A stretch of DNA of 64,000 nt from Lama glama (GCA_028534125.1 CM052816.1:29514001-29578000); one strand, 5' to 3'; shown: positions 2,359 through 31,986, counted from the stretch's first letter. The notes: generated by a model from the sequence alone, not told the origin. Numbers and translations: made by a program.

Positions 2359-2699
2359 CTAAATGAAGGGAAAGAAAATATAAAAATAATTGATTTTAGT
2401 AATAGAAAAAATTAGTATATGTCAGTCTTTCATTTAACAATGGCATAAATTAAGAAACTTCTTAGATATTTCAAGTCCAAGGGTAACATTTTACATGCTA
2501 ATTATTTCTAAAACAAACAAAATTTGGCAAGAGGAATTTAAAATTTTCTAACTTGCTTTTTCATATATAAAGATTGATATACAACTTCATTAACTGCTTA
2601 TGTTCTTAAGCTGCAATGAGTTAACTGTAAGACGCTCTAATGATTAAAGTAAGTTTACCATGTTTCTTGGCATTATAATCCCTTGATAATATTTTATAA

Positions 2700-2868
2700 A
2701 TATTAAAAGATCAGAAGGTAAACGTTCTAGGTTTTGCAGACCATAAAGGGTCATGTTGCATATTCTTTTTTTTAACAACCTTTTAAAAATATAAAGACCA
2801 TTCTTAGCTCGTGGCCTATATAAGAACAAGTTAGATACAGCCAGTTGAATGAATTTTACTGACTCCTG
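2700..2868 (+). mobile_element. MER58-family hAT DNA transposon fragment
   Basis: ctaggttttgcagaccata...aaaaatataaagaccattcttagctcgtggcc...actgactcctg resembles recalled consensus. Confidence 0.55.
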
Positions 2869-4109
2869 TCTATAATAACTTTTAATTTATAGAAGAAACC
2901 TGAAACCCTGAAAGGCACAGTAATTTGCCCAAGTCAGTAATCATTTTAATAACTGAATAAACCACAGTTCAATGTATCTTAGATGAGGGAAATATATTTG
3001 ATCTTTTGCTTACCCCTTTAACTCAGGTGTATACACCTTTCAACTCAGAAGAGAGTACTGTATAAAATCAACATTTATTAAAATAAACACAGGTAAAATG
3101 AAGAGACAGTTGTTAAGAGTTAGAGATGTTACTTAATGTAGGACATTGTTTCATTTTATTTTATTTCCTTAACCTTCAATCTCTAAAATACATTACTATA
3201 AAATGTTTCACAACTCACTGTGAAGTGCAAAAGTTGCTAATTTGAAATTAGAAAATAAATTTACGTCCTGTAAAATTTGGATAAAAATATCAGTAATCCC
3301 CATCCACTGTCTGACCACAGAATTGAGCAGGGTTAGCAGTATTTTTAAAAATGGCAACTAAGGTGACTGTTCATTTGCAAAGTTGAAAGAGGCTTATAAT
3401 ACAGCCAAACAGAAATAACCATATGCAAACTAAACTCATAGTCACTAGATGCAAGAATGTCAAATATATGCTAACCCAAAATGCAACTTGATTACAAACA
3501 TAAAAGAATTTCACTGTTCATAACAGCATTTTGGTTGATTTGAGGGTCAAATTCTTTTCTAAAGAAAGTCTTAGCTCTGGCTGAGACCTACCATGCAGTA
3601 AGAATGTCTAAGTCAAATTGTGTCATTTTATGGCAAAAAACCAATTTAACCACCTATCTGCCTGGTATCTAAAGCATACTAAGTGTCCACTACTGGGTTC
3701 TGAAGACATTGGAAATAGAGACAAATGGTATTTCTATGGAATAGAGGAATATGCTATTTGCTGGTAAAGAATGGGTGGGTGGATAGGGGAAACATAACAG
3801 TTTCCCTGGCACCACTTCTTCAAACTTTACAGTCATGGGAAGGAAAGCTGCAGGCATGGACTTCAAAAAAGCTTCTTCAATGCGGGAAAATCTTCCTGTC
3901 CTCATATTTTCTAGATTTTCTAAAATACTGTTTCCTAATACTGTGGTTCCAAGATAACCTGCATGAGAATCAATTAAAGGCAGTGGGAGAGGAGGAATGG
4001 AGTCTAGCATCAAGAGTTTACACATATTAAAAAAATGCAAACACCTCATAGCTTGAATGAAAACGTGGAAAGTAAAAAAAAAAGTTTATGCATATTTAAT
4101 TTTGAGAAT

Positions 4110-5030
4110 AACTGTAAGTGATAGGAGGTGAGATGGGAGAAGCAGGCAGGGTTCAGTTTGTACAGGTCCTTAAAAGCCATAGTAAATAGCTCAGATTTTA
4201 TTTTAAGGCTAATAAAACTACTGGAGGGTTCTGATAACTCTGGATGTTGTGGACCAAAACATAAAGGGTACAAGAATGGCTACCAGGAAACTAGTTAAGA
4301 AGCTACTACAGTAGCTAAAGTGAGAGGCAGTTGGGGATCTGATTAGGGTAGCAGGAATGGTGGTTGTGGTTAAGTGGCTAGAATTATGATGAATTTCTGT
4401 AACAGCTGAAACTGCAGTATGAGTACAAGAAAGGAAGCAAGGATGACTCCTGGTTTTCAGATCTGTCTCAATAAATGGTGTGAGACAAAAATGAAGGAAA
4501 GAGTGGGTTTAGGTTTAGATGAGGGGAAGACAGAAAATTCTGTTTTGGCATTCAGAGGGAGGTAACTATTAGATTATATATGCAAATATGGAGTTCATAA
4601 CGTGAGTGAGGCTAAGGAGATTTAAGAATTATCAGCCTATGGATGATATTTAAGCCGTAAGATAATCCAAAGAGAAAGTAAAGATAGGAAGAGAAAAGGT
4701 TAGAGAACTAAGTCCTGGAGCACTCAACATTTCAAGGGTGGGAAAAAAAGACTGGCCAATTCAGGAGTGGGAAAGAGAAACAGTGACACTAAATAAACTG
4801 ACAGGAGACATTCTCCAACTATGAATACTTAATAATCAAAGACAATGTTATGGGAACCAAGTGAAGCATGAGTTCCAAAAAGGCAGCTAGAGTCAACACT
4901 AACAAAGGATACTGAGAAGGTGAATTAAAAAAAGGCAGAATTGATTGCTGAAGTTAGCACAGTCATACACTGGAACAATTTCAGTGGAGTGGGCTGGAGA
5001 TAATACCTAACTAGATTAGGGAAATGTGTG
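4110..5030 (-). mobile_element. LINE-2 fragment (degenerate)
   Basis: Purine-rich antisense L2-like motifs (gtccttaaagccatagtaa...gattttatttta; gatgactcctggttttc; boundaries approximate). Confidence 0.65.
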
Positions 5031-5060
5031 ACCTCTGGTAAATAGGGAGGGAAGTCCCTT

Positions 5061-5340
5061 AGAGACATAGAAAACAAACTTCTAGTTACCAGGGGTGGGA
5101 GGGGGTGGGAAGGGGTAAATTATTGGGAGTTTGAGATTTGCAGATACTAACTAATATATATATAAAATAGATGAACAATAGGTTTATACTATATAGCACA
5201 GGGAACTACATTCAATACCTTGTAGTAACCTATGGTGAAGAAGAATATGAGAACAAATGTATGTTCCTATGTGACTGAAGTATTGTGCTGTACACCAGAA
5301 ATTGACAAAACATTGTAAACTGTCTGTACTTCAATAAAAA
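5061..5340 (+). mobile_element. L1 3' end fragment (relatively young)
   Basis: agacatagaaaacaaactt...tgctgtacaccagaaattgacaaaacattgtaaact...caataaaaa; closely similar to copies at 5850-6130 and 34745-35025. Confidence 0.85.
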
Positions 5341-5359
5341 TATGTTTTTTAAAAAGTAC

Positions 5360-6130
5360 ATGAATGATAAATGCTGGAAAGGGTATGAAGAAATGGGATC
5401 ACTCCTACATTGGTGGTGGTAATGTAGTTTGGTGCAGCTGTTATGGAAAATAGTATGGAGATTCCTTAAAAGACTAAAACCAGACCTAACCATACGATCC
5501 AGCAATCCCATCCCTTGGCACATATCTAGAGGGAACCTTAATTCAAAAAGATACATGCATCCCGATGTTCACAGAAGCAATATTTACAATAGCCAAGACA
5601 TAGAAACAACCTAAATGTCCATCAATAGATGACTGGATAAAGAAGTTATGGTATATTTATACAATGGAATACTACTCAGTCATAAAAAATAATAAAATAA
5701 TGCCATTTGCAGCAACATGGATGGACCTGAAGATTGTCATTCTAAGTGAAGTAAGCCAGAAAGAGAAAAAAAAATACCATATGATATCACTTATATGTAG
5801 AATCTAAAAAAAAGACAAATGAACTTATTTGCAAAACAGAAAGAGACTCACAGACATAGAGAACAAACTTGTGGTTATCAGAGAGAGTGGAGATGTGGGA
5901 GGGTATAAATTGGGAGTTCAAGATTTGCAGATACTAACTAATATATATAAAACAGATAAACAACAAGTTCATACTGTATAGTGCAGGGAACTATATCCAG
6001 TATCTTGTAACTTATGGTAAAAAAAGAACATGAAAACAGATACATGTATGTTCATGTATGACTGAAGCATTGTGATGAACACCAGAAATTGACACAACAT
6101 TGTAAACTGACTATACGTCAATTAAAAAAA
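5360..6130 (+). mobile_element. L1 3' fragment including ORF2 C-terminal remnant and 3' UTR
   Basis: Remnant VQLLWKIVWRFLKRLK; aatggaatactactcag; gcagcaacatggatggacct; A-rich tail. Confidence 0.9.
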
Positions 6131-6159
6131 TATATATACATGTATATATATACAAAAAA

Positions 6160-6730
6160 AAAGTTAACCATACACCTACAATATGATCCAGCCATTCCAT
6201 TCCTAGGCATCTATCTACACAAGAGAAATGAAAGCAAATGACTACACAAAGAAATCTGTGCGTGAATATGATAATTAGTCTTACTTGAAATACCCTCAAA
6301 ATGGAAAAACCTCAAGTGTTCATCAATAGGTAAATGGACAAACAAACTATGGTATAGCTGTACAACTGAATATATCTTAGAAATAAAAAGAAATGACCTA
6401 CTGAAATACACAATATGGAGGAATCTCAAAATAATTATGCTAAGAGCAAGGACACTGGGAAAAAAAGACATACTGTATAATTCCATTTACATAAAATTCT
6501 TGAAATGCAAACTAGTCAATAATGTCAGGAAGCAGACTGGTAGATGCCTGAAGAGGAAGAGGGCAAAGGTAGGAAGGGGTTAAAGTTTTGGGGGTGATGG
6601 ACATATTCATTATTTCATTGTGGTGATGGCTTCACCAGTTTACACATTCACCAAAAGTGACAAAACTACACTTTAATAAACATATGCAGTTACTTTAAGT
6701 CAGGTATATCAAATAAAGATGCTTAAAATA
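6160..6730 (+). mobile_element. Older L1 (L1M-type) 3' end
   Basis: ccagccattccattcctaggcat...gaatctcaaaataattatgct...aataaagatg. Confidence 0.8.
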
Positions 6731-7780
6731 AAACATAGCAGAAATCTTGGAAAATTCTGGCCAAAAATAGTTATGATGTTAACCAAAAAGAATGACTGTC
6801 TTTTGATATAGTTTGATGACTATAGAAATATATTCTAATTATTAACATCTCATAAATAGTGTCAAAAAGAAGTCTTAGGATAAGAATTTCTGATAATGTA
6901 CAGACTGCAGTATTTAATGATTACACAGGAAAAGAATATTGTTAACCAATTAAATACATGAATTACATTGTCTCAAAACTTCCAAAGGCTATTAGAAATT
7001 TCCAAAGTATGAGCTGCCTATATTTATTTTGCCAAAATTATAATTATAAGATACACTTGACATCAAATCAGTCTTTTTTGTTTGTATTAATTGCATAGAA
7101 TCCTTTGGGAAAGAAAAAGAAGTGGGAATTAGCAGCTTTAAAAAATATTTTGAGAAGTTTTCCTCCTAAAAATTACTCTTTCGAGATTGTCTTAAAATCA
7201 GAATATGAAACACATGAGTTAAAGATCAACTTAATATAACTTATATTTGAATGTGTGATCATACAACATTTGGGAGTTATCCATGATTGTACAAATTCTC
7301 ATCCTTTTTGTTCCTGTTCTCAAGTACTTCGAGAATACCTGTATGCACCAGGCAATGTGTAATCTGCTATTGGTACCACAGTAAAATAAATGCTACATCT
7401 GATATATTTTTAAGAAATTAATATCAGAGGAGAGAATTTTAACTTCAAAAGTGATAGTTGCAAAAAACAGATTACGATAGTATACTTCTATAATACCTAT
7501 TGTAATTACACTTGATTAAGAACTTTAGTTTTATTTACCCAGGAAAATCTGTAGCCAAAACAAGATACATTCAACTCCCTTTAAAATTGCATTCTCTTAA
7601 TAAAAAAAGAGAAACAATTCTTATGATTGCAATATTTAAGTTGTTAAAGAAAGAATAATTTGAAGAAACAGTAATTTAATCACATTGGAAAAAAAGTCCA
7701 GATCAAAGCTGAAATGCAAACACTTACTTTTTCTTGTTAAAGAATGCAATTTCTAATTTCAGTTGAATGATATTTTGTAC

Positions 7781-7843
7781 CTTATTGATGTTTGGCTCCT
7801 CCATCATAGAATTTTTGATGGTTTCACAGCTGTCGTCTAATGA
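7781..7843 (-). CDS. DMXL1: DMXL1 exon 29 (63 nt, phase 0-0, likely alternatively spliced) SLDDSCETIKNSMMEEPNINK
   Basis: ttgatgaag|TCATT...AATAAG|gtacaa; resembles the 21-aa insert I recall from the longer human isoform. Confidence 0.85.
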
Positions 7844-10800
7844 CTTCATCAAGAAAGAATAACCACATGACAAAGAGTAAAGATGAGATGTAACATGCAA
7901 AACACTGGGGATATTCTTTAAAATTTTATTTTTAATCAGATTTACCAGAAAAGAACACTGGACTGAGTTACTATTTTCTAAAATTTCAAATATCTTAAAA
8001 GAAGCATGTGTGGGATACATGATTAGGGGTTAGGGAAAACTTACTCCCTCAGAACTCATTTAACCATCACTATAACTTTTATTCTATTTCCTAAGAAATT
8101 TTTACTAAATTCACCCATTTCAAATATTTACTTTAAAGCAAGACTGAACCCAAAATACTTTATATTACAAAGTTCAGAGCTACTGGTGCCAGAGTACTAG
8201 CAACTGAAAATTAAAGTCAAATTGTTCTCTTACAACTACATCTGTCTCTATTATGATACCGTATTCCTCAAGGAAAACCTCCTGATTAGAAAATTTTGAT
8301 TTTTAGGTTTCTAATTCTCTTCTCTTGATTTAGCCAGACATAGGCAATAAAGTGCTTAGAGGAACATATCCTCCTTCAAAGGGGATATTAGTATTTGTTA
8401 AAGAAAGAGTTGGTTTAAGGCTTTTAGTTCTCAGAAAATGAAAGAAAACAGAAAACAGAACTGGGCATAAAGATGACAGCTGCAAAGCATGTTTTTGTTG
8501 GGAATGGTTCAGCTATAGTCCACTTGTTTCCAAGTAAGTAAAAACAGGGACGAATTTCTATATTAAAAATGCCTGTGCCAGCAAACTACATTACGCAGGA
8601 AAATAAAAGATCTGAGGATACACCAAAACTTTAATGTCAGATGAAGAAAGTTTCATTTCCAAACACATAAAGGAATAAAGAAACAGGAGCACTCCCAAAA
8701 TACTCTCCATCGTCTCCACTCAAAATAGAGGGCCTGTCGCTTATCTATTTCCTAACCGTCTGAAAAGTCACAGTGACCTGAACTCAACTAAGTATAATTA
8801 TCATTTATAAAACAGAGAGGTGAAAGGTAATTTTGTTAATACCAAAAATAGGCTGGACAACTTTCTAGTAAAGATGAAATAATTCTGTATCAACTCTATA
8901 AAGTTAATGTTTAAAAAATTCCATCTATTCTATGTTTCATGGTGTAAAATTTTTCTTTTCATATCCTCTTTATCAAAATGTCACTAACTTTAAGAGTACC
9001 ACCATCAAGAGTAAAACAAAAAAGCAGTAACAATAAATTTCTAGTAACTACCATTAGTGATGACAGGTTTTAAATAAGTTAAATTTGCTTATCAAAGTAT
9101 TACAAAGTGCATCATATTCATTTTGGAGATTAAAAAAACTATAATTAGAGAAAATATTTAGTTTACTGATAGCTATAAATCTTAGTCCAACATTCACATT
9201 CATGCTTTTGATTAAAATAATTACAAAATAAAAATACCTAAAATTTTCTTCAGATAGCATGAAACTTCTAAGAAAACTAAAAATAAAACAGGAATTTAAA
9301 AGGTAAAGTTGTACTCATTGATCTGCTATCCTTTCATTACTCATGCTGGCTTGATTATACTCTTCTATTCCCTTAATGATTTTATTTTGTAATTCAACTA
9401 GGCAATCTAATAGTACAATAGATTTTTGTTTTGTTTGTTTTGGGAACGATTCCATTTCCCAAATGTACTAAATATATCAGCATTAGAGAAATGTTTTTAT
9501 TTTCACAACTACATTAATCAAATATGGCAATGTTTTTAAAAAAATGATTTTGTACTTGACATTATTTTGCCAAACGTGCATGTTCATGTTACAAGGTAAC
9601 ATTAACGAAGCCAAAGAAACGAGCACAGTGAGCATGCTTTTTATACAGAACAATACAGCAGTGCTTTATATACCATTATCAGAATGCCCTGATTTGTAAT
9701 AAATTATTTTTTGGCAAAGATATATTTAAAAAAAGAAATATTGCCTCACCAGCAACATATCCTAATTAGTCTGACACTCTTGTCTAGCACATTCATTTTA
9801 AGTTTTATTTATCCAAAAATTTTCTTGAGCTGTTTTAATAGTAATTCATATGCTAAATATTTAAGATATAACTCAAATAAAGTTAAACAGAAATACATTA
9901 ATTTGTATTGTATCTAACTGCATCTACCGATTGCCTAGATTTCAATGTTACACTAGGTACCCCTGTGAAAAGTCTTCTAAGTTAGCAAAACACTATATAT
10001 TTTATTTCCTGGCTTGGCTAATTCAAATATATTTACATAATCAAGCCAAAAGTAAATAACAGCACATGCAGTTGCCTCTCATAATTAGTTCTTAAACCCA
10101 GAGACAATGAAATACAGGTAATTTTCCTTTTTCACTAAGGTTAGACGACATCTTGCCTTTTGATAACTTGTCTATTAAGAAGCCATTCTATTTCCTTATT
10201 TTTCCAACTGAAATATCTTTCTTTTTCCCTCCCACTTCAAAAACAGCAAAAAGCTTGCTTTCAGATTAGTCCAGTTCTTCTCAAAATGTGATTCACAGAA
10301 CAGCTGCCAGTCTTGAACTCTACTGATCCATGAGAAGATCAGGAACTAACTACATTAGGTTTATATGTTTTAATAGCAAAACTATTTCAAAAAAGAAAGC
10401 AGTATGTCAATTTACGTTCTGGTGCAAGTTCCTCATATCATCAAACTAGAACTGATTAGTATCACTGAACTTAATGAGAAACATAATCTTTATGATGATA
10501 ACATCAAGTTACAAATCAACTATTATAGTATAATTATAAATTAATTTGAGTTTATAAAATTTCACTAAGAAGCAAAATCAACATAATAAAACATGTATTT
10601 GAAATATTTTCAGTATACAAATCTAGTTTCAATTAAAATTCCTTTTTTTTTCAATTAAACTTCTAAGATAAACTTTATCACATGAAAATAATGGGAAATT
10701 TCTTTTTTGTCTCTTAAAATGGTAATCTTGACAACTCAAAACATAGGAAAAAGGATACAGAATCTTAAGTCAAAGAGTATATTTTTGGGGAAAAAAAGCC

Positions 10801-11017
10801 CCCAATACATCTGAATAAGTTACTTTCATTTAAATTGGTTAGGAAAATAATTACCCTATCCTTTTCAATCACTTTTCTATGCATTAACTGCATAATATAT
10901 GTTTGTGATATAAAAAAAGTTTTTTAAAAGTCTGTAAAATGTAACTTTTTCTTTACAGTTACAAAATACAAATGAATTCAATAATAAAATAACAAATAAG
11001 TTTCAATTTATACAGAC

Positions 11018-16759: not shown

Positions 16760-18150
16760 AAAAGTTGAGGTAAGCTGATTATGAAAGTTCTCTTTGAAAA
16801 GTGGCATTTAAGTGAAACCTAAAGGGCAAGAAGGAATAAGCAATATAAAAAGAGGGAAGCAAAGCATTTTAGGTAGTAGAAAGAAGATGTAGAAAGGTTT
16901 AACATGTGGAAGTGTGTGGTATGAAAAAATTAGTTTGGCTGAAGCGTAACGAAGAAAGAGGATAAGTGTTGGGAGAAAGCTGAAGAGAACAGCAGATGAT
17001 ACATTAGGTAGAGTTTTCATACAACACAGTAAAGAGTGTAACAGAATGCCACTAATGACTTTGAAGTAGAGGACAGGTATTGAGATTTATGCTTTAAGAA
17101 TATTACGATTATCACTATCTTATGAGAGTCAAATGGCAAGACTAGAAATGGAGACATCAGTAACTAAGGCAGGAACTGGCAGTCTGGATACAGGTGTTAA
17201 TGATGGAGATGGAAAGAAATAACACATTCATGGTGTATTTGGGGGGGAAGCATCGACAGATTTGCTATCAATTTGGAGAGCAAGGGAAAGAGAAGGAAAA
17301 GATGATTTCTGGGTTTCTGGTCTGAGCAACTATAAGGATGAAGATGTCATTTACTAACCTAGAAGGACTTTGGTTGTGAGAGGAGAAGTACTGCAGAAAA
17401 TAAACATCAAAAAGCCAAATCTTGAACAAGTTTAAGATTCACACACAGGTCAGGTAGAACAGGAAGGGTGAAAGGAGACTATGAAGGAATAAATAGTAAG
17501 GTTGGGGGAAGAAACAAGAAGACACTGGTATCAAGAGAATAAGAGAGAAAAGTAATTCAAAAAGGAGGAAATGATCACATGGGTTGAATATTGCTAAGAG
17601 GGCAAACAAGATAATGATATAGAAATTTGTTATATTTGATAATAGGATGCCACCTGGATCTCAACAACAGCAGTTTCAGTGGGTTAGCTGTATCAGAAGT
17701 CATACAATGAGTAAATATGAAAGGGACCAATGGTAATAGAAGGAAAATGTGTACACCATTTTGAAAAGTTGAATGAGGATGGGAAGCAAAGTAATGGGAT
17801 AATAGCTGGAAAAAGTTTTGGAGTCAAAAGCAAAATTTGGAATGGGAGACAGTAGGGCACATTTCCAGTCTGATGGGAAGGAGCCAACAGAGAGAAAAGA
17901 ACTGAAGACATACTAAAGAGTAGAGAAGAAAAGCAAGGATGGGATTCAGAATAGCACTGGAGTCTCTGATAGGAAGGACACTTCCTCGATAATAATGGGA
18001 GGAAAGTATAAAGTGGGAGCTTCACGACAGAATGATGAAAGAGTTTTGTCTGGTGTTTTTTTTTTAATTAAATGACTTACAAGATGAGGTCATCAGTTAA
18101 GAGTGAAGATGAAAGAGGAGAGGTGGGATGTTTGAAAAGAAAACTTACAA
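16760..18150 (-). mobile_element. LINE-2 fragments (degenerate)
   Basis: Purine-rich L2-like motifs (gatgatttctgggtttctggtctgagcaact); approximate limits. Confidence 0.6.
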
Positions 18151-19012
18151 CTTATAAAATCTTGGGTTCAAGGAAGCCCAATAAGAAACACAGGGAGGAC
18201 AGAACTGGAAAAGCTGAGTGAGGAGCTTAGTAAGTCCTCTCCCCTAAAAGTAGTAATAAAACTAAGTAATTTGTTGAAAACAATCATTTATAGATATTGG
18301 AAACTGACCAAATGCATACAATGTATAGAGAAGCATTTATTTAAGAAAAATCTACCGAATCAATAAAAGTGAGCATTTGGCATTTTGGCCAGGGGCTACT
18401 GCTACCCCCACCCCTGCCCTATGTGGCCCATTTGTCCTCTCAAGGCCAGCATGGCAGTTTGCGAGGACAAAGAACTCTGCTGCCAGACTAGTGGGGGCTG
18501 ACTTTAATAAGAATTCCGTGTCTAGCAGCTTTGTCAAAAATAAAAGAGTTCTAAGTAGCAAACAATTAGGGGAGGCTAACATCTCAACTAGCCTGAGGCT
18601 GTGACAGAGACTGGAGCAAGGGCAGATCAGTCGAAATTTAACAAGATCCAGGAACAAGACAACTACAGAAGGCTTTGCTAATCAAGAATCATATACACAG
18701 CAAAACTGTGCTTTAAAAAGAAAGATGAAATAAAGATATTCCTATATAAAGTACTCAATAAACATTCAGTGAATGAATCAACGACTCTGCAAAAGACAAT
18801 GTGCAACAAGGTGATATAAATGCCTTTCTTTATCCTGAAGCATGCAGGATACAAGATAAATAAAATATACTGCTTAACAGGCCTCAGGGATTGGTTCATC
18901 AGGAAATAGTGAGGTGTCAATTAATATAAGGAAGTAAGTAAGGAGAACATCCAGAAATTCAGGATGTGAGGGATCTGGCTGATCACAGGAGAAGCGTAAG
19001 AGATACACATAT

Positions 19013-20063
19013 AGGCAGTTCTTCCTTGGCTTGGTAGTGCAGGAATGTAAAAATAATGACACAAGCTGAAACTATGAAAAGCAACCTTAATAATTCATGA
19101 AAAAATTACAGTTGTTCTGTGACCATTCAAAAAATTTGTCAAAACACTAATAACCTTTACAGTCAGTTATAAATGTACAGGAAATTCCATAAAGTAAAAA
19201 TACTAGTATTTAGTACACTGTAACCAAAATATTAGAAACACTGAGAACTAAAGTGTTTTATTTCTATGAAATTTATCAAGGGTACTTTGAATAGTGCTTG
19301 CCTTCTTCTAACTTTATAACTCAGAATAGAAAGCAAGCATCTCTTTTAATCCTTAGCAAACTGTCATACTCCCTTTTAAGTTTGTATCAGCTTCCAACTT
19401 TTTACGTTTTGTACTTTCAACGTTGTGAAATATTACTTAAAGTTCCTTTAATGTGAAGTTTTTTGTCTATTTCACTTTCTTCGGGATATCTTCATCCTCT
19501 TGTCACATTTTCCTCATTTATGCTGATAAGGTGTCCTTCACTAGGTTCCTCTGGCTTCACATCTAAAGTCTCTCAAATGACAGCAACGGCAATATTCCCA
19601 GTTAGCTTCCTCTTCTATAGCTTTACTTACAGTGGGTTGCAATTTTACTTCCAGTGCTATCGCTTTTCATTTTTTGGTTCCCCTTTCATCTTTGTCAGCC
19701 AATTCCCTCTTCTGATTAACAAATTTTGTGAAATGTGACTTGGGTATATCACAGGAGATAAGGAGGCAAGACAATGACATGCTCTTCTGTCTGTGTATGA
19801 AATGAATACTGAGTAACAGGTACCAAATGACCAATCACCAACAGACTTTGGAAGAACGGTTGTGACTAGTCACTGATTGTCCGGTGCCTCTGTTACTTAC
19901 ACACAGATTTGTAGACCAAAGAGATAGCACGAAGTTTGTATTTTATGGGGTTAATCATATTTAATATATTGTGGTAACTTCAAATTTTAACTATGTTGTT
20001 GAAGTATTGATGTTATTTAACTAAAAACTGAAACCTCTGTATATCAGAACAGTGCAGGACTGT
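19013..20063. mobile_element. TcMar-Tigger-type DNA transposon (about 1 kb)
   Basis: Ends ggcagttct... and ...aggactg resemble degenerate terminal inverted repeats; interior resembles a recalled Tigger consensus. Confidence 0.7.
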
Positions 20064-20381
20064 GTGGAGTACAGAAAAGGAATTAGAGAATGGATGGTAC
20101 TTTGACTTCCTTGATTGTTAAAGTGTTAATCAACCTATTCTTTCATCTTACTAGGAACTTTGCTTTCTTTAAAATGCAAAAGTCATAATTTTTAAAAGAA
20201 CTGTATTAAATACTGGTTGAAATATGGCCAAAATATTTTAGGGTATATTTTGTCATAATGCAGCCTGATGAAAAGAAAATTTTCTAAACCAGTGTGAGAA
20301 AATATTGGGAAACACCAACAATTATGCTAACTTTAAACATTTTCATTTCTGTTTAAATGATCTGTATAACACTTCTATTAC

Positions 20382-20560
20382 CTTGGCAATGAAGTAGTCC
20401 CAGATACTGAGCTCAGGTGGGATGAATTTCTCTTTGACTGTCAGTGACTCCTGGCTTACTGGTGGTGAGGAAGAGGTCACTGGGGCAGATTCTCTGCAAG
20501 ACATTTTTGATGGCCTAAAACGTTTGCTCTGTTTCTCTCCTTCTTCCACTAGTGAAGAAA
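20382..20560 (-). CDS. DMXL1: DMXL1 exon 24 (179 nt) VSSLVEEGEKQ...SIWDYFIAK
   Basis: ttattag|TTTCT...GCCAAG|gtaata. Confidence 0.95.
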
Positions 20561-21356
20561 CTAATAAGAATAAAATAAAGTATTAATAAAATAAGTACTA
20601 TTTACCTGTACTGATTTCACTTATTTTTACATAAGACCTAAGATTAAATACAAATAAGTATATATACAAAACTGAGATTATTATTATGATAGGTAAGATG
20701 GTGTGAGAGAAAAATTACCTTGTATAGCAATTTTTGATTTTGTCTCAACTTGTCCCTTACTCTCTGAATGTAGTTAACAGGGTATAATATCTGCCTGTAA
20801 ATGAGCCTGTAATTTAGCTAAGACCCATGACAGAAAATTATCTACATGTTTCTAGTCTTTTTTTTTTAAGAATATCATGGGGGGTTGTGGAAAGAGTATC
20901 ATGAGATGTCAGCAGTAATTAAAGGCAACAACTCACTTATCAGATTCTTCACTAATCACTTGGCCTTCTATCTACTACAAAACTACATTTTTCACTGCTA
21001 ATGTAAGAAAAATTTAAACACCATAACTACTTACTAAACCGATTCAGACCTTTAGAAATGGCTTGAAGACAGAATTTTCTAGTCAATGGAGTAGCAAAGA
21101 AGGAGAAAATCCAATCTTTATTGTTTTAACTTCTAAATATTTAACAGTTAGCCAATATTCTCTTAGTATTTTACCTTAGAATATAGAATTACAAATAGAA
21201 TTACAAATCTGTAATCAACACTAAGCCACAAGATGCAAAACACCAGTAGAGAATCAAGGATCTCATGGACATAGGCATGATCTAGTAGAAAAGTAAACAA
21301 CTCCATATTGACACACCAGTATTCTCCTTCAATGGTTCCAGTGAGAATTTACTTAC

Positions 21357-21413
21357 CTTCCAAAGGAATACAAGTATTTGTACTGTAATACGATTTTGTT
21401 TTACTGCTTGAAG
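21357..21413 (-). CDS. DMXL1: Candidate alternative exon (57 nt phase 1-1, or 47 nt from 21403 phase 2-1) (ASS)SKTKSYYSTNTCIPLE
   Basis: Consensus donor AAG|gtaagt; open frame in phase with the next exon; weak acceptors; upstream TGCATG/GCATG. Confidence 0.4.
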
Positions 21414-24254
21414 CTACTCAGCTTGCATAAACAGCATGCTCATGCATTATATCAAGCTACAGCCAAGCCAAGTTTAACAGAGTAATTATTTCAGAAAAAA
21501 TGAAATTAACATCAATAAAATTAGTATACTAAGAGACTGCTAAAAAGTGGTATGATTAATACATAATCTTTCAAATGACTTTAAAAGGAACCATCAGATT
21601 CAATGTGTAATTTTTTTCTCTGTTCTTATAAGCAATTGATAAAAAATAATCATGCTTCTAATATCTGTTGCATGCATTTACATACATTCTAAAACTTGAG
21701 CACTGGTTTTACCAAATTCTCACTAAGTAAAAAAATTTAGAATACAGAGGTATTTTTTTATCTGTCAAAAACTAATGCTTTAAGATAAATTTATCATTTC
21801 ATTTTCACATTTCAAATTTATTATTTTACTGTTTTGCCTGTTTTGGTTTTAGATTATTAGAAGGCATGTAACGTGAACATAGATTCTTAGGAAAAAATAA
21901 AACTTACAAACAATGCTAAATTCACAGATTTTTACCAAGATTGCTATGTCATAATAAAGCAGAGTTTTCAAAAGCAAAACATAGGAAAAAGTTTGTTTAC
22001 AGAGAAAAACACTTGAAAGTACAGTGTGTAAACCCAGACACATGACAAGAAAATAAAAGATCAACCACACTGCGGGGAAATGTCTAAAATTTCAAACTCA
22101 ATTGCAGGAGTATAAAACTACTTATCAAAATACTTGTGATGAAAGGACAATAGGGGGAAAACGGCAAACAGGTTCATAGTACTGAATGTTATATTACGTG
22201 AAATGCTACAAGTAGAACGACCTAAGTGACACCTCTCAGCAAACAAGAAATGATGTGTGGCCTGGCATTGGGGTAGATCCCCCTTCTCCTTCAAACTGCA
22301 GTTAGACTTGAGACAGCTTTATGCTTAGGTCATGCTGGGTGTATCATGAAGCGCAGGGACACCAACAGAGACTGTACAGCTCTGAGTGCTTGACCATTTG
22401 TCTCTGAAAAGAGCTAGTAATAAAATATCAAGAACTGTGCAACTCCTTGGATAAAAACTGACTACTGTTTATTGTTAAGGTAGTGAATGGCCACTTTACT
22501 AGTAATAAAAGAAAAAGTCAGTATTAGGGAGAAATAAAAAGGAACACGGGTACAGATAGAGCTTAGGAATTGTAAGGGGCATGAAGATGCTAGAAAGTGG
22601 GTAAAGAAAAACTAAGGTATGCATCGGAATAACAATTCTTATAACTGCAAATATTATTATGAAACAATAAAAGTTCTTTAAAGATTTTGTTTCACTTTAC
22701 CATATGTAATAAAAAGTGAAAGTATGGATTTCTGTTTGCAGAAAAAAAGTAAGTTTTTGAAAACTGCTATTATTTAGCTGATTGTCCACTTTAAAAATTA
22801 ACCATAGCAACAAAATAATTCAGAACTTCATGAACATACGCTCACATTATAGTTTAATTAATTAGAAAAAATAAATCCCTCGTTAACAGGTAATGTGGAA
22901 ATCACAAGGTAGATTAAAATTAAAAAATAAGTTACTAATTTATGTACATTAACATTTTTGTTAAGAATTCTAACCTGCCAAGCTAAAGTCTAATAAAAAT
23001 CAACTGTCATGTTCCTATATTATTAAACTTAAGTCATATTTAAATTTGTCACTAAAAGTACATTAAGCATACAACATACATGCAGAGAGAAAAATAATTT
23101 AGTTCATAAGACCATCACTGTAAGAAAATTAAAATCAGAATTTACATCAGAACAAGGAAAACAAATGGTGATTTTTAAAATCCTCTTAAAGTACCAAGTT
23201 TAAGAAAACACTTTTTAAAAGACAGATTTTTAGGGGTTCTAAGCATGTATTTCACCTTCAATATACAATACATTGATACTGAATAAATTGTCAGGAAAAT
23301 GAAATATTCTAGACTTCTCAGTTTTCATTTGGCCAATTTTAAATACTAGAAATTTATATATATACATAAAAAGACTCTTGGCTGAATTCAGATCAACTTT
23401 TCTAAAACACACTATTTTACTCCCTTGGTCAACAATGTATACTGAATATTATTGAGTGAAGTTACACTCCTGGGACATCATGATTACGTTTTGCAATAAT
23501 TCAAACATGCAGGGTTGCTGCTTACTTATAACCTAAAATTTATCAAGCTGCCATGCTGCTGTAGTTGGTGTGCTTTCAGAACAACATAAGAATGCCTTCA
23601 AACCCTGAGATTTCAGAACTTTGCCTTATATTGAAAGCCATCCTTGCTTGTCTCCTGTCTTGGTTGATTTTCTATTCTTAGATTTTGTCTCTCCAACTGT
23701 CAGTTTATCCACTTCACAGGACTACTACTCCTAATTACTATTACTACCTTTACTATCTACCATTGCACTTTTCCTTTTTCTTTTGTTTTTCTATTTCTTT
23801 CTTTTCTGTCTGCTCTTACACAAACTAGATCAGCTTTAGAAACAGCAGGCCTTTGGATTCATCATTAAATGAATATACTCCTTTTTCCTGGTTAGCAAAC
23901 TGATGAATCAAATCATTCATGTTTTCTATAAATGCTCCTTTAGTTACATCCATGATTGATTGTATTCAGAAAGGTTCCTGGGTTCTCACAGACAGATGAC
24001 CACCATATAACCTGGGATGTGCTATATCCAGCCCTACCACTAAGTAAACCACATGTTTAAAGTATCCTATATTATTTGACTATCATGTTTCAATCCAAGA
24101 GATTAAATGTATAGATGCAGATAATTTTGTTCATTTTGATTATTTAGGATTTAATAAGTGGTGAGATAGAGTTTACGATATGGTATTTGTAATTATAGCT
24201 AAATCTGAGTGGTTAAACGAACAACCTGGACTTTGAGTAAGGTTGCTTATTCAC

Positions 24255-24294
24255 CTGTGCTCAGAAATGCTCCAGGAGTTGTTGAAACTGAGAC
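24255..24294 (-). CDS. DMXL1: Candidate alternative exon (40 nt, phase 1 to 2) GLSFNNSWSISEH
   Basis: tactaaccagtcagcag|GTCTC...CACAG|gtgaat; open in phase 1; weak pyrimidine tract. Confidence 0.35.
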
Positions 24295-25239
24295 CTGCTG
24301 ACTGGTTAGTAAGAATGTATTTTTAATTTTTTATAGCTATATAGACATTTGGTATCAAGAATTTATCCCTTTTTAACATTTTACATCAACAAGATCAGAG
24401 TCTTAAATCATTTTTTCTTAGAACATACTACAAAATAGGGCAAAATTTACCTATCAATTATTTATTTAAAACTAATTTTAGTAGACTTTATAAATCTTAC
24501 TCCCTCTTAGACTTTGAAAGTTTTTCTTTAAATGAATTCAAATATCTGAAGTTAAGTATATGTTCCAAGGTAAGTGTCTAAGTTAGCTTTTCCTTTTTTT
24601 TAATCCATATAAAAAATAAAACACAGGAAATTACTCTTTAAAAATCATAAAGAGGATGTTACACAAATTAAAATATTGTTAAAAATTTGAATACCAAGAT
24701 TATCACATATGGGTTAATAAATTACAAAAAGAAAACTTAGGCAGAAATCATCATGAAGATGTATAATACATATTGTTTCAATATTAGAGACTTTAGAAAA
24801 GAGGATACAATTGTTTAAAATATTTATTTTACATGGTATTATGAACACTTACAAATCTAAAACCCCTAATGGCTGGAATCATAATATGCAGAACATAAAG
24901 CAACCTTATTTGAAATGTTTTCCAGTCACTTCAAGTCATAGTCTGATTTATTCTGGTTAGCACTGACATTTCTTTATTTCTACACATTTAAAAATGTTAA
25001 AGTCTAAGGAATAGAAAATACCAAAACAAGTAATTTAAAAGCAGAATAAAAGAGCAGAGATGGTTTTCTAAAATGCTAATTGTTCTAAATCAAGAATATG
25101 GCTTGATTAACGGAAATTTTTCAATTCTCTGTTATAAATGCCAAACAAAATAAAACTTGCCCACTGTACCCCCAACCCCTCCAAAACAACACAAAGCAAG
25201 CTGAACTATAAAAGCCTATTTCTAAAGCTAATATCTTGC

Positions 25240-25353
25240 CTGCAAGACTGGGAGGGCTATGAGAACTGATGGTTGAAAGAGCTTTGGAAAAGCCCACACA
25301 TTCCATGGAGAATACCACTACCTGGTGGGGACTAGGCATAGCAAAGTACCTTC
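25240..25353 (-). CDS. DMXL1: Candidate alternative DMXL1 cassette exon (114 nt, phase 1-1, GC donor) GRYFAMPSPHQVVVFSMECVGFSKALSTISSHSPPSLA
   Basis: Acceptor cttctctcttctttctttggcag|G, donor CAG|gcaaga, stop-free in the frame set by the flanking exons; no transcript evidence. Confidence 0.55.
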
Positions 25354-25698
25354 CTGCCAAAGAAAGAAGAGAGAAGCTGTATTTGGGACAGAACAAAAAC
25401 CAGTGTTACAGTATATTTCAAAACAAAAGAAAATTTCAATAGTAAAAGGTTTAAAATTATATTACATAGTTCTAATTACTGGTGCACAAGTATTTTAAAG
25501 TTTGAAAATTACACCAGAAATTTTATAGTGCATTTCTACCATGGAACAATTTGTTCATGCTTTGAGAAAATGGTCTATAACAAGAACTTTCTGTGAATAA
25601 ACTAAAATGTAATTACTTTTAACAAAGTTATCATTCACATGAATAAATAAAACTTCAGCCTAAAAAAAATAAGTAAATAAAACAGATTAAAAACTAAC

Positions 25699-25947
25699 CA
25701 GGTACAGCTTTTGAGTGCGTCTGTTCTTTGCTGGGGACATGTGCACCTCCACCAAATACAGCAGACCACATTTTTTCATTTAGAGGATGGGCCACAATCC
25801 GAAATAGTTCGTTACTAGAATGTGTTGCCAAGCCATGGATGAAGAGACTAAGATACACCGCTGTGAGAATCTCACAGAGTAAGACTGTAAGCCCTGACTG
25901 GGCTTCTTCCCCGGAAGAATTCAGAAGTCGAATTAGAGAAGTTATTC
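25699..25947 (-). CDS. DMXL1: DMXL1 exon 23 (249 nt) GITSLIRLLNSS...THSKAVP
   Basis: ctcctag|GAATA...GTACCTG|gttagt; ORF 25694..25963. Confidence 0.95.
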
Positions 25948-26458
25948 CTAGGAGAAACAACAAATGTAGTTACCATTGACAATAAACTTAAAAAATTTAA
26001 AATTAACCATATTTTCTAATTTTTGAAAAAAACTTTATTGCATCAGGATTAAAACATTTTCTTCTCTAAATTCATAGACAGGTAGCAATTACTGTAGTTA
26101 ATGCATAAATGCTGAGCTATTTGCTGAATTTAGAGAAACGCTAGAAACCTAATCTGATTCAAATCAGATAGATAAAATTTAGTTGTCACAACAAATGTTT
26201 TTCTATTACAACAGAAGTAAAATTATAAAAAGTGATATAACAAGACATTTGAGTTATTATAATATGACAAGCAAGGAAAAACTAATGTTATGTAACTAGA
26301 TAATTTATAATGAGTGGTGAATAATGAACTGGTATCAATTCTAATAATACTTAACAATAATGATCACATAGCAAAACCAAACCAAAACTACTTTTTCCTC
26401 ATCTGATTAAGTTCAATAAGGCTAATAAAAAACTCACACATATATAAATTATTTATAC

Positions 26459-26586: not shown

Positions 26587-27499
26587 CTAAGAGAAAAAAA
26601 ATTAATAATAATAATCTACAATGATAATAAAAACAATATAATAAAACAACAGCAATAATAATAATATATAATGAACTAAAATAATTTTCACATGTAACAT
26701 TTTCACGTCTTTAGATCTAACTTCTAGGATACCTTAAATACAAAATTTTGTGTATTAGTTATACTGCTTTACATTTAAGTACTGTACTTTACAGTCTAGT
26801 ACTATAATACAACAAAGTGTTCTTTAAATTATCTAAATTAAAACAGATATGAAAGCTTTTAAATATATTTACTAAAAGACACAGAATATGTACAAATGAG
26901 AGAATCAAATCATTATTGACCACAAATAGCAAGCTTATATATCACAATTTAAAACAAGGTTATTGAATTGAATATAAAGCCAGTTTAGGTTCAGTGTGAT
27001 ATTTAATGGCTATTCTACCCTACATCATGCTAGGCTACATTAGATACATGCACCAGGTAACCAGGCATTTAATGAAAAACCTGGTTTGTCTTCCTGTGAA
27101 ATTTACAGTCTGATAGGGAATCAGACACACATAATTTTATCACATTGCTTTTAAAGACAAAAACCTGTGCTCTGATAGCCAAAGAGTAGTATTCACACAA
27201 TTTGGGAATTCAGGGTAAGCTTCTCTTAGTAAATGGCTAAAGCTAAAATAAACTAAATAAACAGATAAATGAACTAAATAAATTACAGCTTGACATAAAC
27301 TATGAAATAAATCTGAGAGAAAATGGTATGAAAAATCTGTTAAATACTGTCAGTAGTTCCTATATAACACGTTAGGTAAATGAATATAATATTTAAATAT
27401 AGCATATTTATTGGTTTAGATCTGTGCTAACTGTCAAGTCTTACTAGTCACAACATTTTGATGCATATGTAAATGGTTCTCTTGCTTTACTTTCCATTT

Positions 27500-28290
27500 T
27501 CAAGGTGGCAGAGTAACAACAAAAGAATCCCCCCTGCTAAAGTAAGTATAAGGAAATAATGAGAAGGATTAAAAATAGGTTGATGAAAATAAATTCACAT
27601 TTAATAACACGGAAGTGAACTTTTGGAGGACTAAGTTAAAGAAAATCAGGATGAAACTACCACGGGATTCCATAATCAGAGTTGTAAGCTGAGGTGACTC
27701 ATGGGAGAATTCAAACACATAAGATAAATAATCAAAAATCAACACAAAGGAAGGCTGACATGTTAAGAGACAACAAACTCAGAGAAATGCCTACACTTGA
27801 GGAAGCAGACTTAGGAGAACATTAAAGAAAGTGGTTAATACACAGAGAAGGTAAAAAAAGAAACTCAAGAAACAGTAAGTTACAAAAAAAAGTGGCTACT
27901 TAAATCAATAAAGAGATATTAAAAATGAAAAATAGAATTTCTAAAATATAAACTCAAATAGCTAAATAAAAGATAGGACATTGCTGAAGAATGAATTAGT
28001 ATCTGGAAAATGAAGCTAGGATTTATTCTTAAATGAAGCAAAAAGAAATAGAGAAGAGGATCATTTGAGAGGAAAGCTAAAAGGCAAATAAGAGGGACAC
28101 ATACAAGTTCTAATATCTATCTCATAGGGAAGGAAAGAGAAGAGTGAAGATAAAATATTTAAAGAAATAGAGTAAGGGAATTCCAAAGAACTAAAGAAAG
28201 ACACAATATCCCAGTGTCAAACTATTTTTTAAAAGCCTAGATAAATTATAGTGAATGTGAAACCTTAGGACATAAAGAGAAAAATCATAA
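27500..28290 (+). mobile_element. Old L1 5'/ORF1 region remnant
   Basis: ttcaaggtggcagagtaa; gctgaagaatgaattagtatctggaaaa; gaagataaaatatttaaagaaata. Confidence 0.55.
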
Positions 28291-28751
28291 ACATCAAATA
28301 TCGTGTAAAATTTTTCTCAATTCCAAGTCAGTCACTCCCTTCTCTGTGCTTCCTGAGACATTTACTATCTATTATTTTATAAGACGTATCATTTAAGTAT
28401 TATGTCATGCTACATATCATTAATCAGTTCACATGGTTGTCTCTAATTAGACAGACCTTAAGGAAGGAGACCTTATTCCAGCATGTATCACAATACCTAA
28501 CACTAGGCAGTGAAAAATAAAAGGCTGCTAAATAAAGTTATATTGTGAAGAGTTTACTTGAGATGCATTTGCCATAAAGACATAAGCTAAAATTTCAAAG
28601 ATGGAAACAAAAAAGACTCAATACCTCAGCCATATGCTTTTGCATTATTTAAAGTGGACTGCTGTGTACAGTATTTCTAAATCAAAATCCTACAAATTAT
28701 CAAACCTCATCAGTTACTGCAAACATTCTTAAATTTCACAAAGATATTTAC

Positions 28752-28828
28752 CTGTAGTTATGACTACCACAAAGGCACTGATAAATACAAGCAGAAAGTG
28801 AAGCTGCTAAAGTATGCATTACATATAC
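28752..28828 (-). CDS. DMXL1: DMXL1 exon 21 (77 nt) VYVMHTLAASLSACIYQCLCGSHNY
   Basis: ccccag|GTATAT...CTACAG|gtaaat. Confidence 0.95.
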
Positions 28829-29569
28829 CTGGGGGAAAAAACAAAAAATTACTTTAAGTATAACTTTATTAAAAATTTATTTTCAAGATCCAATATAACC
28901 AGCATTTTTAAAAAGATGAAAAAACTATTTTCCCCTTATAAACTGTTTCCTTTTTCCCTTAATATTAATTTCTGTCTGGAGAGGCCTTGCTACAAACAAA
29001 ACCTGAGGCCTCTGGCAGAAATTATAAAACACACATCTGCCACCTAATTTCTATTTCAAGCACAAATGAGAACAGACATTAGATATTCAGTAGTGCAATG
29101 AACCATGCATTAAAAGCAAGCCCCCCAAGACTCAACGTGCTCCTTCCTCAAGCAAAATATGAAGCCCAGCCTGATGATGACAGTTCACTTACAAACAGAT
29201 CACTGAAGAATATGCTTCTGCACATTCAAGTTACTAAAGAAAGCAATTTGGAGAGTGGCATTTCAGAGAAAGAGGAAGGTATGAATGACAGCAACTGAAA
29301 GGCAAATATTTGAAAAGGAAAGACAGGACTCTTAATATGGCATGAGAAGAGAAATAATAGAAATAGATCTGAGGATGGAGACGCTTAACCTAGGTAAGAA
29401 AGTAGACTAGACTCTTAAAAGGCCAGGTTCTTGATCTGATGATGAAGAATGATACTCTTACGTGCAGATTAAAATCTAATTGCCATTTTTCCTTCTATTA
29501 TGAATAGCCATGTGATATGAATTAAAATCAAAGGTAGCATCATATAAAGGAAGACAGCAAAGGCCTCAT

Positions 29570-30606
29570 ATAGGAGACTACAAAAATAATCATAATATTT
29601 TCCAGCTTCTCCAATCAAAAGGTGAAGTCTATTTCTCCATTTATTGAATCTGGGCTGACTTGTGATGTGCTTTGCCTAAAAGGACCCAGCAAAAGTGATG
29701 TGTGATTTCTGAAACTAGTTCTCAAAAGTCCTTGCAAATTCCACTCTTGCTCTTTAAATTCCTGGAACCACTATGTGAAATAACCTAGGTGAAATGGTTA
29801 ATTTTATCTGTTTACTTCATTAGGCCAAGGGTGCCCAGACATTTGGTCAAACATTATTCTGTGTGTGCCTCTTAGGGTGATTTTGTATGAGATTAACATT
29901 TGAAATGGTAGACTGAGTAAAGCAGATTGCCCTCCCTAGTGTGAGTGGCCTCATCCAACTGAAGACCTGAGTAGAACAAAAAGGCTGAGTATGAGGGAAA
30001 TTCTGCCTGGCTGCACTGAGCTGGGACATTGGTCTTTTCCCACTTTTGTACTAGAACTGAAACATTGGCTCTTCCTGGGTCTCAGTCCTGCTGGTGTCTG
30101 GACTAGAACTTACACTAATAGCTCTCCTGGTTCTCAGGCGTTTGGACTCGGAATGGAACTACAGCATCTGTTCTCCTGGGCCTCCAGCTTGCCATCTGAA
30201 GATCTTGAGACTTCTCAGCCTCCATAATTAAGTGAGCCAACTGCTTATAATAAGGCTCTTTCTACACACACACACACACCCCCTATTGGTTCTACTTCTC
30301 TAGAGAACTCAGACTAATACCCTAGGGTTGCCCGCTGGTGGATAAGACACACATGACCCAGTCTCCTGTCAGTCCTGCAAACAGTCTGCCAACCACCAGA
30401 AAAGTAAATAAGGCCATCCTATGTCATCCAGAATCCAGTCTATCTGCCAGCTGACCAAAGACAAGTGAAAGTAACCAGCTATCAGTCGAGCTGACTCAAA
30501 AGAGAACTGATGAGCCAATCCGCAGAATCATGAGCAAAATAAATCATGGCTATTTTGAGCTACTTATGTTTCAGGATGGTTCTTTAAGCAGCAAAAGCAG
30601 ATATAC
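29570..30606 (+). mobile_element. MLT1 (MaLR) LTR interrupted by nested MLT2
   Basis: ggtgaagtctatttctcc...ttgaatctgggctg; 3' cagaatcatgagcaaaataaa...gcagcaaaagc. Confidence 0.75.
29790..30321 (+). mobile_element. MLT2 (ERVL) solo LTR with 5-bp target-site duplication CTAGG
   Basis: tgaaatggttaattttat...ctattggttctacttctctagagaactcagactaatac; ctagg at 29785-29789 and 30322-30326. Confidence 0.88.
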
Positions 30607-30861
30607 CAGGGGCCTACTTATTATTAAAGTTAAATACAGAATAAAGTTTGGTTAAAATGAGCACAATCTGAAGAAAATTAAATTTCTAACTGTATAATAC
30701 GCAATGTGGGCATTTATACTACTGAGCAGTATAAGAAATAAACTGGCAAAATTAATTTATAAAAGTTAAGGTTACCCAAGAGGGTAAAACTATAGGAGAA
30801 GCCAACATTAGACAAGAAGAAAATGGAAATGGCGTGATATCACAGCCATCTGATTCTCTCC

Positions 30862-30932
30862 CAGATGACAGATTATGCAGAGAAAAAAAAAAGAGAATCA
30901 GATGACAGATTATGCAGAGAAAAAAAAAGAGA
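30862..30932. repeat. About 35-bp tandem duplication cagatgacagattatgcagag(a)ngaga
   Basis: Two copies starting at 30862 and 30899, seen directly. Confidence 0.92.
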
Positions 30933-31316
30933 GACACTTACACACTAGTACTTTTACATGATATTAAGTTTCTGTCTCTAAAACACCACCAAATTTTTCG
31001 CTAAGTTTACTGCTAAAGAATTACTCATACATGTGCATACACACTTATTACTCTTACCTTAATGAAGTGGTTAAATAAAACTAAATAAAAATTAAAATTT
31101 CAAGTACCCTATTAGGTATAAGTAACATAAGTAAGATGAGCCTGGCCTATAACCAGAAATTTTCTTTGATCAAGATCAATAAAAACCTGGTAATGTAACA
31201 ATCTGAATGTATAGTCTGATGTTTAACATTGTTTATAAAAAGCCTTAACACTTATCTTTTCGTTTTATCACACATAGTATACAGGAAATTAAATGTCTGA
31301 AACCAAGCATACTTAC

Positions 31317-31508
31317 TTTATTGCTCTGGACATCAGGATGGGGTGGTGAATCAAAGTTTATGATGGCGTGTAGAATATCATGTGTTAAATTACTAAGGTG
31401 CAATAACGGATTGGCAACTACTGTTTTGGCACTGGCTGTACAAGCAAAGAGAAGAGGTACTGAGGTTTGTTCTGACAGAGGGCTAGAAAATATTGGTTCT
31501 GCTGTTTC
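31317..31508 (-). CDS. DMXL1: DMXL1 exon 20 (192 nt) ETAEPIFSSP...PHPDVQSNK
   Basis: ttttaag|GAAAC...AATAAA|gtaagt. Confidence 0.95.
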
Positions 31509-31986
31509 CTTAAAAACAAAGCAAAAAAAGGTTAATTAATTATTTATAGTCACAATCCATTACTTAAGTAATTCAGGGGTCTCTCTGAAAAACTTCAGAA
31601 CAGTTAAAATTGAAAGCATAACAGAAACTTTCACGGGTAGAAGTGACCTGAGGAGGTCAACATTCTACCCATTACAATGAAAAATGATGGGACAATACTC
31701 TATTATCACAAGGAGAAGCTCATAACCTCACAAGGCATTCATGTAAGAATGTTTAATATGAATTAAGTAGTTCATAGGGTCTGATAACAAACTGTCCTTA
31801 AACCACAATACATACATAACTCTAGAAATTCGTAATATGAATTTCACAAAAAATTTTGGAGCTTTACTTAAAGGAACCATAATTAAGAAAATCAACAATT
31901 TTAATACTTAAAAACTAAAAGAGCAATCTCAAAAACTGTTTTTCATATATGCACTATTTTGACTGGTTATCACGTAAGTTACATAC

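Follow-up and report, generated by a model that had tools for sequence, protein, structure and literature searches.

A probable 114-nucleotide cassette exon with a GC donor in a repeat-poor intron of DMXL1

Does a 5138-nucleotide (nt) intron of the llama DMXL1 gene contain alternative exons and, if it does, are they used singly or in combination? The question arose from a sequence-only reading of a 64,000-nt stretch of Lama glama DNA (GCA_028534125.1 CM052816.1:29514001-29578000; this whole stretch is called the window below), in which the intron at 20561..25698 was described as free of transposons and as holding five exon-like islands that together would form a combinatorial splicing module. 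We conclude, with a probability of roughly 0.88, that the intron holds one real cassette exon, 114 nt long and located at 25353..25240 on the minus strand, and that the four other islands are ordinary intron. All exons, islands and splice sites named below are on the minus strand. DMXL1 is essential in mice and required for V-ATPase assembly; mouse Dmxl1 has 43 exons and encodes a protein of 3025 amino acids (aa), and the available part of the report that describes it does not discuss isoforms of Dmxl1 itself (PMC11237898).

The intron and the signals of its 114-nt exon

Most of the gene for DMXL1, the alpha-type rabconnectin-3 and a homologue of Rav1, lies within the window, as collinear exons nearly identical to annotated DMXL1 proteins. 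The full-length proteins P0075 and P0278 (the latter being isoform X1 of Vicugna pacos) map exon by exon along the minus strand, and the largest window exon is 99.8% identical to P0278. As precomputed annotation, the matched full-length proteins carry PF12234 (Rav1 C-terminal domain) and PF00400 (WD40). The constitutive exon upstream of the intron (25699..25947), which tblastn of P0075 and P0278 places at its window coordinates, is 94-95% identical to mammalian DMXL1, and the gene had thus been named correctly. Its translation reads ...LNEKMWSAVFGGGAHVPSKEQTHSKAVP, and it ends with ...SKAVP plus one base, in phase 1. The intron begins with the donor CTG/GTTAGT (GT at 25698-25697) and ends with the acceptor ...TTCTTATTAG/TT (AG at 20562-20561), splitting a codon into one base and two bases, which puts both flanks in phase 1 and gives SKAVP/VSSLVEEGEK at the join. 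These coordinates, the GT and AG ends and the phase of the flanks can be read directly from the DNA and are as had been claimed. The constitutive exon downstream of the intron (20382..20560) opens with VSSLVEEGEK and contains a further acceptor, 12 nt from its start. By themselves the two short flanking exons gave no Pfam match, and no solved structure covering the flanking exon was found.

The cassette exon at 25240..25353 preserves the frame and codes for GRYFAMPSPHQVVVFSMECVGFSKALSTISSHSPPSLA, that is, 38 open codons with phase 1 on both sides and no stop between the flanking exons. Its acceptor (25354..25376) contains the CU-rich tract TTCTCTCTTCTTTCTTTGGCAG, followed by G as the first base of the exon, with TCTT/CTCTCT motifs at -20 to -10. 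Its donor (25234..25239) reads CAG/GCAAGA and is consensus-like apart from the GC. To these and other sites we applied a rough position matrix that was checked on DMXL1's own sites, for which the medians are ~3 for donors and ~2 for acceptors. By this matrix the acceptor of the cassette exon scores 11.6, as high as the best of the window's real acceptors, and the donor scores 7.2 with position +2 ignored. We note that the constitutive sites of the surrounding intron are weak by the same rough matrix (donor CTG/GTTAGT, 2.3, at 25698-25693; acceptor, 0.9, at 20561-20582), and that the sites of the alternative exon are much stronger than these. The open reading frame (ORF) spanning the exon extends over 25121..25405. 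In the intron flank that follows the exon (25121..25239), the first ~33 nt are conserved and the frame remains open to a stop at 25123-25121; G-runs are found at +61 to +80 after the exon. A DNA search showed that the exon is single-copy in the window's own genome, where no paralogous copy was found and the next best match had E=0.046. Pfam scans of the island, and of two ORFs in and just beyond 23450-24011, gave no meaningful match, DUF5985 at E=0.087 being far below its cut-off.

We then asked how far open frames and splice sites of this kind are expected by chance. All AG..GT/GC segments of 24-300 nt in the intron that keep phase 1 and are free of stops were counted. There were 257 of them. 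The antisense strand gave 215 and a set of 200 dinucleotide shuffles 196±31, and the density of 50 per kb in the intron falls within the range of 28-96 per kb in the window's other introns. Because the count is near the antisense, shuffle and other-intron levels, keeping the frame without stops is uninformative in itself. The combined strength of the two splice sites was more discriminating: acceptor and donor of the 114-nt island sum to 18.8 (rough matrix, donor +2 ignored), a value reached in 0 of the 200 shuffles, in which the best sum was 13.5, and in the 19 further introns that measure 900 nt or more no segment had a sum above 8.8. Of the five proposed islands, only the 114-nt island stands out from chance.

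The intron is also repeat-poor and holds no recognizable interspersed repeats. When the whole intron was used as the query in a DNA search of the window's own 2.35-Gb genome, a single first-look candidate was returned, the intron itself, whereas the same search returned 4069 candidates for 27000-32000, centred on a ~500-nt repeat, and 336 for the next downstream intron at 15911-20381; all these counts are lower bounds, since the search skips very common words. The difference between one candidate and the numbers for these two neighbouring stretches bears out the description of the intron as repeat-poor. Tandem Repeats Finder reported a single 26-nt array in the intron. In the neighbouring introns, interspersed repeats were seen at 29795-30320 and 19010-20050, with hundreds to thousands of genomic copies at 66-79% identity.

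Occurrence and conservation of the 38-residue insert

We looked for the exon among stored DMXL proteins in which both flanks are readable (n=217, all predicted protein models). An insert is present at the junction in 23 of the 217, always of exactly +38 aa, and the other 194 skip the exon. The carriers belong to eight placental species, four marsupials, the platypus and two ducks. The placental models are Bison bison X2, Panthera leo X6, Myotis yumanensis X1, M. daubentonii X2, Pipistrellus kuhlii X1 and X5, Microcebus murinus X1, Manis javanica X1 and Vicugna pacos X1; the marsupial carriers are Macrotis, Monodelphis, Sminthopsis and Sarcophilus, and the further carriers are four platypus UniProt models, Oxyura jamaicensis X1 and Anas platyrhynchos X1. 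In Vicugna pacos X1 (P0278, XP_072813924.1) the insert comprises residues 2369-2406 of 3089, and between FGGG and WDYF all 106 residues of this protein agree with the window. Both P0190 and P0278 matched the position of the cassette exon in the window by tblastn. The insert isoforms of Vicugna pacos (X1), Macrotis lagotis (X1/X2/X5/X6) and Anas platyrhynchos (X1) have the same junction, the same boundaries and the same 38 codons as the window exon, and the V. pacos peptide is identical to that of the window; nothing differs in substance, and this is the same exon. Inclusion and skipping are both annotated within one species, as in Pipistrellus kuhlii (X1/X5 vs X3) and also among the isoforms of Macrotis, Monodelphis and Oxyura. 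It had been anticipated that some of the islands might already be in predicted transcript models, which is true of the 114-nt exon only, and that the insert would be absent from the canonical protein, which holds for the major isoform only.

Conservation of the exon was examined in an alignment of 26 sequences that contain 14 distinct exon peptides. No indels were seen inside the exon. Among the 8 distinct peptides of full length, 23 of the 38 columns do not vary, and 13 of the 14 distinct peptides share an identical core, MPSPHQVVVFSMECVGF, the bird-like fragment P0060 having Q for H. Placentals, marsupials, platypus and ducks share the exon boundaries, and the difference between mammals and birds is far larger in the neighbouring constitutive sequence than in the exon. 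With the island ORF as query, a search of 1.84 billion representative proteins yielded five genuine clusters, which consist of short ORF fragments of genomic origin, both mammal-like and bird-like; the matches P0057 and P0061 are internally repetitive proteins and were discarded as spurious. In the genomic ORF fragments from other species the acceptor tract reads FSLLSLAG or CFLSLAG, and the residues right after the exon are Gly-Lys (GGY AAR) in every fragment, consistent with a conserved G/GYAAG donor in which GC and GT are indistinguishable. Past the donor, conservation continues for ~33 nt (GKILALEIGFY vs GKILDLVIGLY in the bird-like fragments) and then gives way to divergence with indels. 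An exon together with conserved intron flanks is the usual picture for a regulated alternative exon. The turkey DMXL1 model P0011 reads ...KTKTGRHFPMPSPHQVVVFSMECVGFSKSLTAFSTHSPTKSAGKI..., which corresponds to the window island at 74% identity. We did not retain this model as a witness of splicing: it reads through the donor and then runs into the gene's central region, where the Rav1 C-terminal domain of the family is encoded, and therefore looks mis-joined. Judged from the sequences that share it, the exon is at least as old as amniotes, and the divergence time puts its age at more than 300 million years.

Weighing the exon against other readings of the intron

Several points weigh against the presence of a real cassette exon. 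Its donor is GC and not GT. When a long query was used to search the region around the junction, the insert was found in only 1 of 120 listed cluster representatives (of 1417 DMXL proteins), Macrotis lagotis X6. Inspection of cluster members showed that many isoforms are concealed behind a representative: the insert is carried by 8 of the 13 listed members with a readable junction in the marsupial cluster, and by 15 of 70 members in ten further clusters. All 13 long Logan-source proteins at the junction (2480-3023 aa, from contigs of ~8-11 kb) are without the exon. These proteins presumably represent assembled transcripts, and their skipping of the exon would therefore mean that inclusion is minor or restricted. 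The models that do carry the exon are automatic predictions, and the exon is known here from genomic sequence and predicted proteins. Of 24 sequencing runs listed for the region, 20 contain part of 25100-25950; two are recorded as RNA, with 0.62 and 0.44 of the sampled words of that stretch, and no weight is placed on these shares. Moreover, conservation covers the acceptor tract and ~33 nt beyond the donor, that is, both intron flanks, and part of the signal is therefore at the level of nucleotides. Finally, regulation of the PTB type and a function for the insert are matters that we infer.

The alternative that survives best is that the island is a conserved element that is not spliced in this species, either a non-coding intronic regulator or an exon lost through its GC donor, and that the annotated isoforms are prediction artefacts. 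It would account for the GC donor, for conservation that extends into both intron flanks and for the skipping seen in the 13 Logan-source proteins. However, the same boundaries have been drawn independently in ~15 species by two annotation sources, and the 38 codons are fixed, without an indel between mammals and birds, whereas the flank acquires indels ~50 nt past the donor. GC donors in the context CAG/GCAAG are functional in mammals. Nor does the sequence behave like a structured RNA: it folds worse than its own shuffles (z=+2.0), 199 out of 200 of which do as well or better, and there were no Rfam matches at E<=1 over 20300-26000, so that a structured RNA is unlikely. Taken together, these data make an unspliced element improbable.

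Still less probable is the combinatorial module, in which several of the five islands would be combined (114, 57, 40+47 or 114+40+47 nt) to give a family of insert isoforms with up to 67 additional aa. All four combinations are stop-free in frame, but only if the 47-nt piece is taken as 21403..21357; when we took it as 22371..22325 instead, it created a TGA stop. This much of the proposal holds, but it does not count as evidence, since open segments are common by chance, as the count of 257 in the intron against 215 antisense and 196±31 in shuffles indicates. In the same way, the 40-nt island is followed downstream by 28 segments of 47 nt bounded by AG..GT/GC, and 12 of these would likewise leave its frame open. 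The splice sites point in the same direction. The 57-nt island (21357..21413, with its 47-nt version at 21403..21357) has a perfect donor, AAG/GTAAGT, scoring 7.8, and this together with the unusually repeat-free intron speaks for a module; its acceptors, however, score -4.1/-4.9, and the donor of the 79-nt island (22325..22403), TAA/GCATAA, scores -6.9 and is unusable, all of them below the well-mapped real sites of the window. The 40-nt island (24255..24294) is AG..GT bounded, with a passable acceptor of 2.2 and a passable donor of 4.8, and by itself shifts the frame; joined to the 79-nt island it is out of frame and ends in a stop. For the broad "exon-like" stretch at 23450..24011 no splice sites had been named, and nothing was found there: its GC content is 0.36 vs 0.31 for the intron, its longest ORF has no Pfam match, and a DNA search showed that it is not repeated in the window's own genome.

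The protein models agree with this assessment. None of the 217 stored DMXL proteins has an insert of +19, +29 or +67 aa, and an insert containing the 40-nt island is not in any stored protein. The 23 insert models all carry exactly +38 aa, which leaves the truncated isoforms proposed as part of the module unsupported. At the level of annotation the combinatorial module is thus largely refuted. Of the five islands called exon-like, the one at 25240-25353 is confirmed, and those at 24255-24294, 23450-24011, 22325-22403 and 21357-21413, with their poor sites and their absence from the 217 proteins, are ordinary intron sequence in which AG and GT dinucleotides and open frames occur by chance.

The least probable of the three alternatives, and one we find hardly credible, is an alternative last exon, in which the donor would be ignored and 39 more codons read to the stop at 25123-25121, with polyadenylation nearby, to give a DMXL1 that lacks the C-terminal WD40 part. 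The frame is indeed open to 25121 in the window and open in every genomic ORF fragment found, but such fragments were found because they are open, so that this observation reflects how they were selected. Poly(A) hexamers (AATAAA/ATTAAA) are present at 24978 and 24952, but in this AT-rich intron such hexamers have an overall density of 2.1 per kb. The turkey model P0011 does read through the donor, yet by continuing into the gene's central region it looks mis-joined. Furthermore, all 23 models with both flanks splice at the donor, and the read-through peptide diverges with indels after 11 residues. A poison exon was rejected outright: like the conserved stop-containing exons of that class, this is a deeply conserved alternative exon in a long intron, but it has no in-frame stop and keeps the frame on inclusion, and the mRNA is therefore not sent to decay.

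Related splicing events and a possible role for the insert

Other alternative splicing was seen at this junction and elsewhere in the gene. At the exon downstream of the intron, two acceptors lie 12 nt apart, with AG at 20562-20561 and at 20550-20549 (exon start 20548), each with a score of 0.9. In elephants, Rhinolophus, Nannospalax, Monodelphis, Sarcophilus and wombat, isoforms that lack VSSL have been annotated, and 20548-20562 in the window looks like a conserved tandem acceptor that makes a difference of 4 aa. Among stored proteins, the only inserts at the junction that are not the 38-aa insert are those of a sawshark DMXL1 (P0017) and an eel DMXL2 (P0051), each of ~35-40 residues. BLASTP of P0017 against the island ORF gave no alignment at E<=100, and the shark insert, which is not detectably related, was set aside as a relative of the island. 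The eel insert, judged by eye, also looks unrelated to the amniote exon. Alternative exons seem to have arisen repeatedly at this junction.

Further upstream in the gene, a 69-aa stretch at 31305-31511 is present in Vicugna pacos X1 and Macrotis X1 and not in Camelus X5. It maps inside the intron of the shorter form (31986..28829) and is therefore another DMXL1 alternative exon. A short alternative exon at 7775-7852 lies in the 8.7-kb intron 11017..2359, and both P0278 (residues 2643-2668) and P0190 (residues 2665-2690) match it; it is probably the 21-aa insert SLEDSSEIIKNSMMEEPNINK that distinguishes rabbit X6 from X7. This 21-aa insert of rabbit X6 and a 17-aa insert further 3' resemble the 114-nt exon in being frame-preserving cassette exons in the C-terminal third of DMXL1 with placental annotations, but they belong to different introns and share no sequence with it. 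The two curated human DMXL1 isoforms (3027 and 3048 aa) presumably differ by the 21-aa exon and not by the 114-nt exon. A DMXL1 splicing event has been validated in prostate cancer cells, the exon being unspecified in the available part of the text (PMC12974184).

Literature searches on DMXL1 exons and splicing, as far as the texts retrieved were available, found no paper describing the 38-aa exon. The exon is nevertheless already known in the sense that automatic annotation places it in many species, and one of the annotated proteins is identical to that of the window; it is functionally uncharacterised and ordinary in kind. With conserved GC-donor cassette exons as a general class it shares a strong acceptor, a consensus-like non-canonical donor, conserved flanking intron, a length that is a multiple of three and skipping in the major isoform. 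It differs from that class in that UGCAUG is absent within 300 nt on either side.

On inclusion, the 114-nt exon lies between the two phase-1 exons and places 38 residues between ...SKAVP and VSSLVEEGEK. Skipping would be the default and inclusion would be regulated, with control possibly exerted at the acceptor by its CU-rich tract, at the donor by its non-canonical sequence and perhaps further downstream by the G-runs. TCTT and CTCTCT are PTB-type binding sites, and a CU-rich tract with these motifs, together with a non-canonical donor, would be typical of exons that are repressed by default. Mean Kyte-Doolittle values are +0.31 over the whole exon and +1.55 over its core QVVVFSMECVGF, compared to -0.5 and -0.9 for the stretches of the flanking exons, which are hydrophilic and serine/proline-rich. 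A hydrophobic insert placed between hydrophilic stretches may alter a binding surface of this V-ATPase assembly factor and not its fold.

We suggest tentatively, and with more doubt than confidence, that the 38-residue insert could act as a functional switch within the RAVE/rabconnectin-3 scaffold of mammals. The hydrophobic core of the insert, which is kept from ducks to camelids, would then change the partners of the scaffold, or the V-ATPase pools that it serves, in the cells that include the exon, and the intron might be free of repeats through splicing-regulatory constraint. The more exciting part of the original proposal, the combinatorial module, does not hold, and the finding is a modest one. 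What it offers is an ancient alternative exon of DMXL1, set between hydrophilic serine/proline-rich stretches, as a natural entry point for asking whether this assembly factor exists in functionally different forms.

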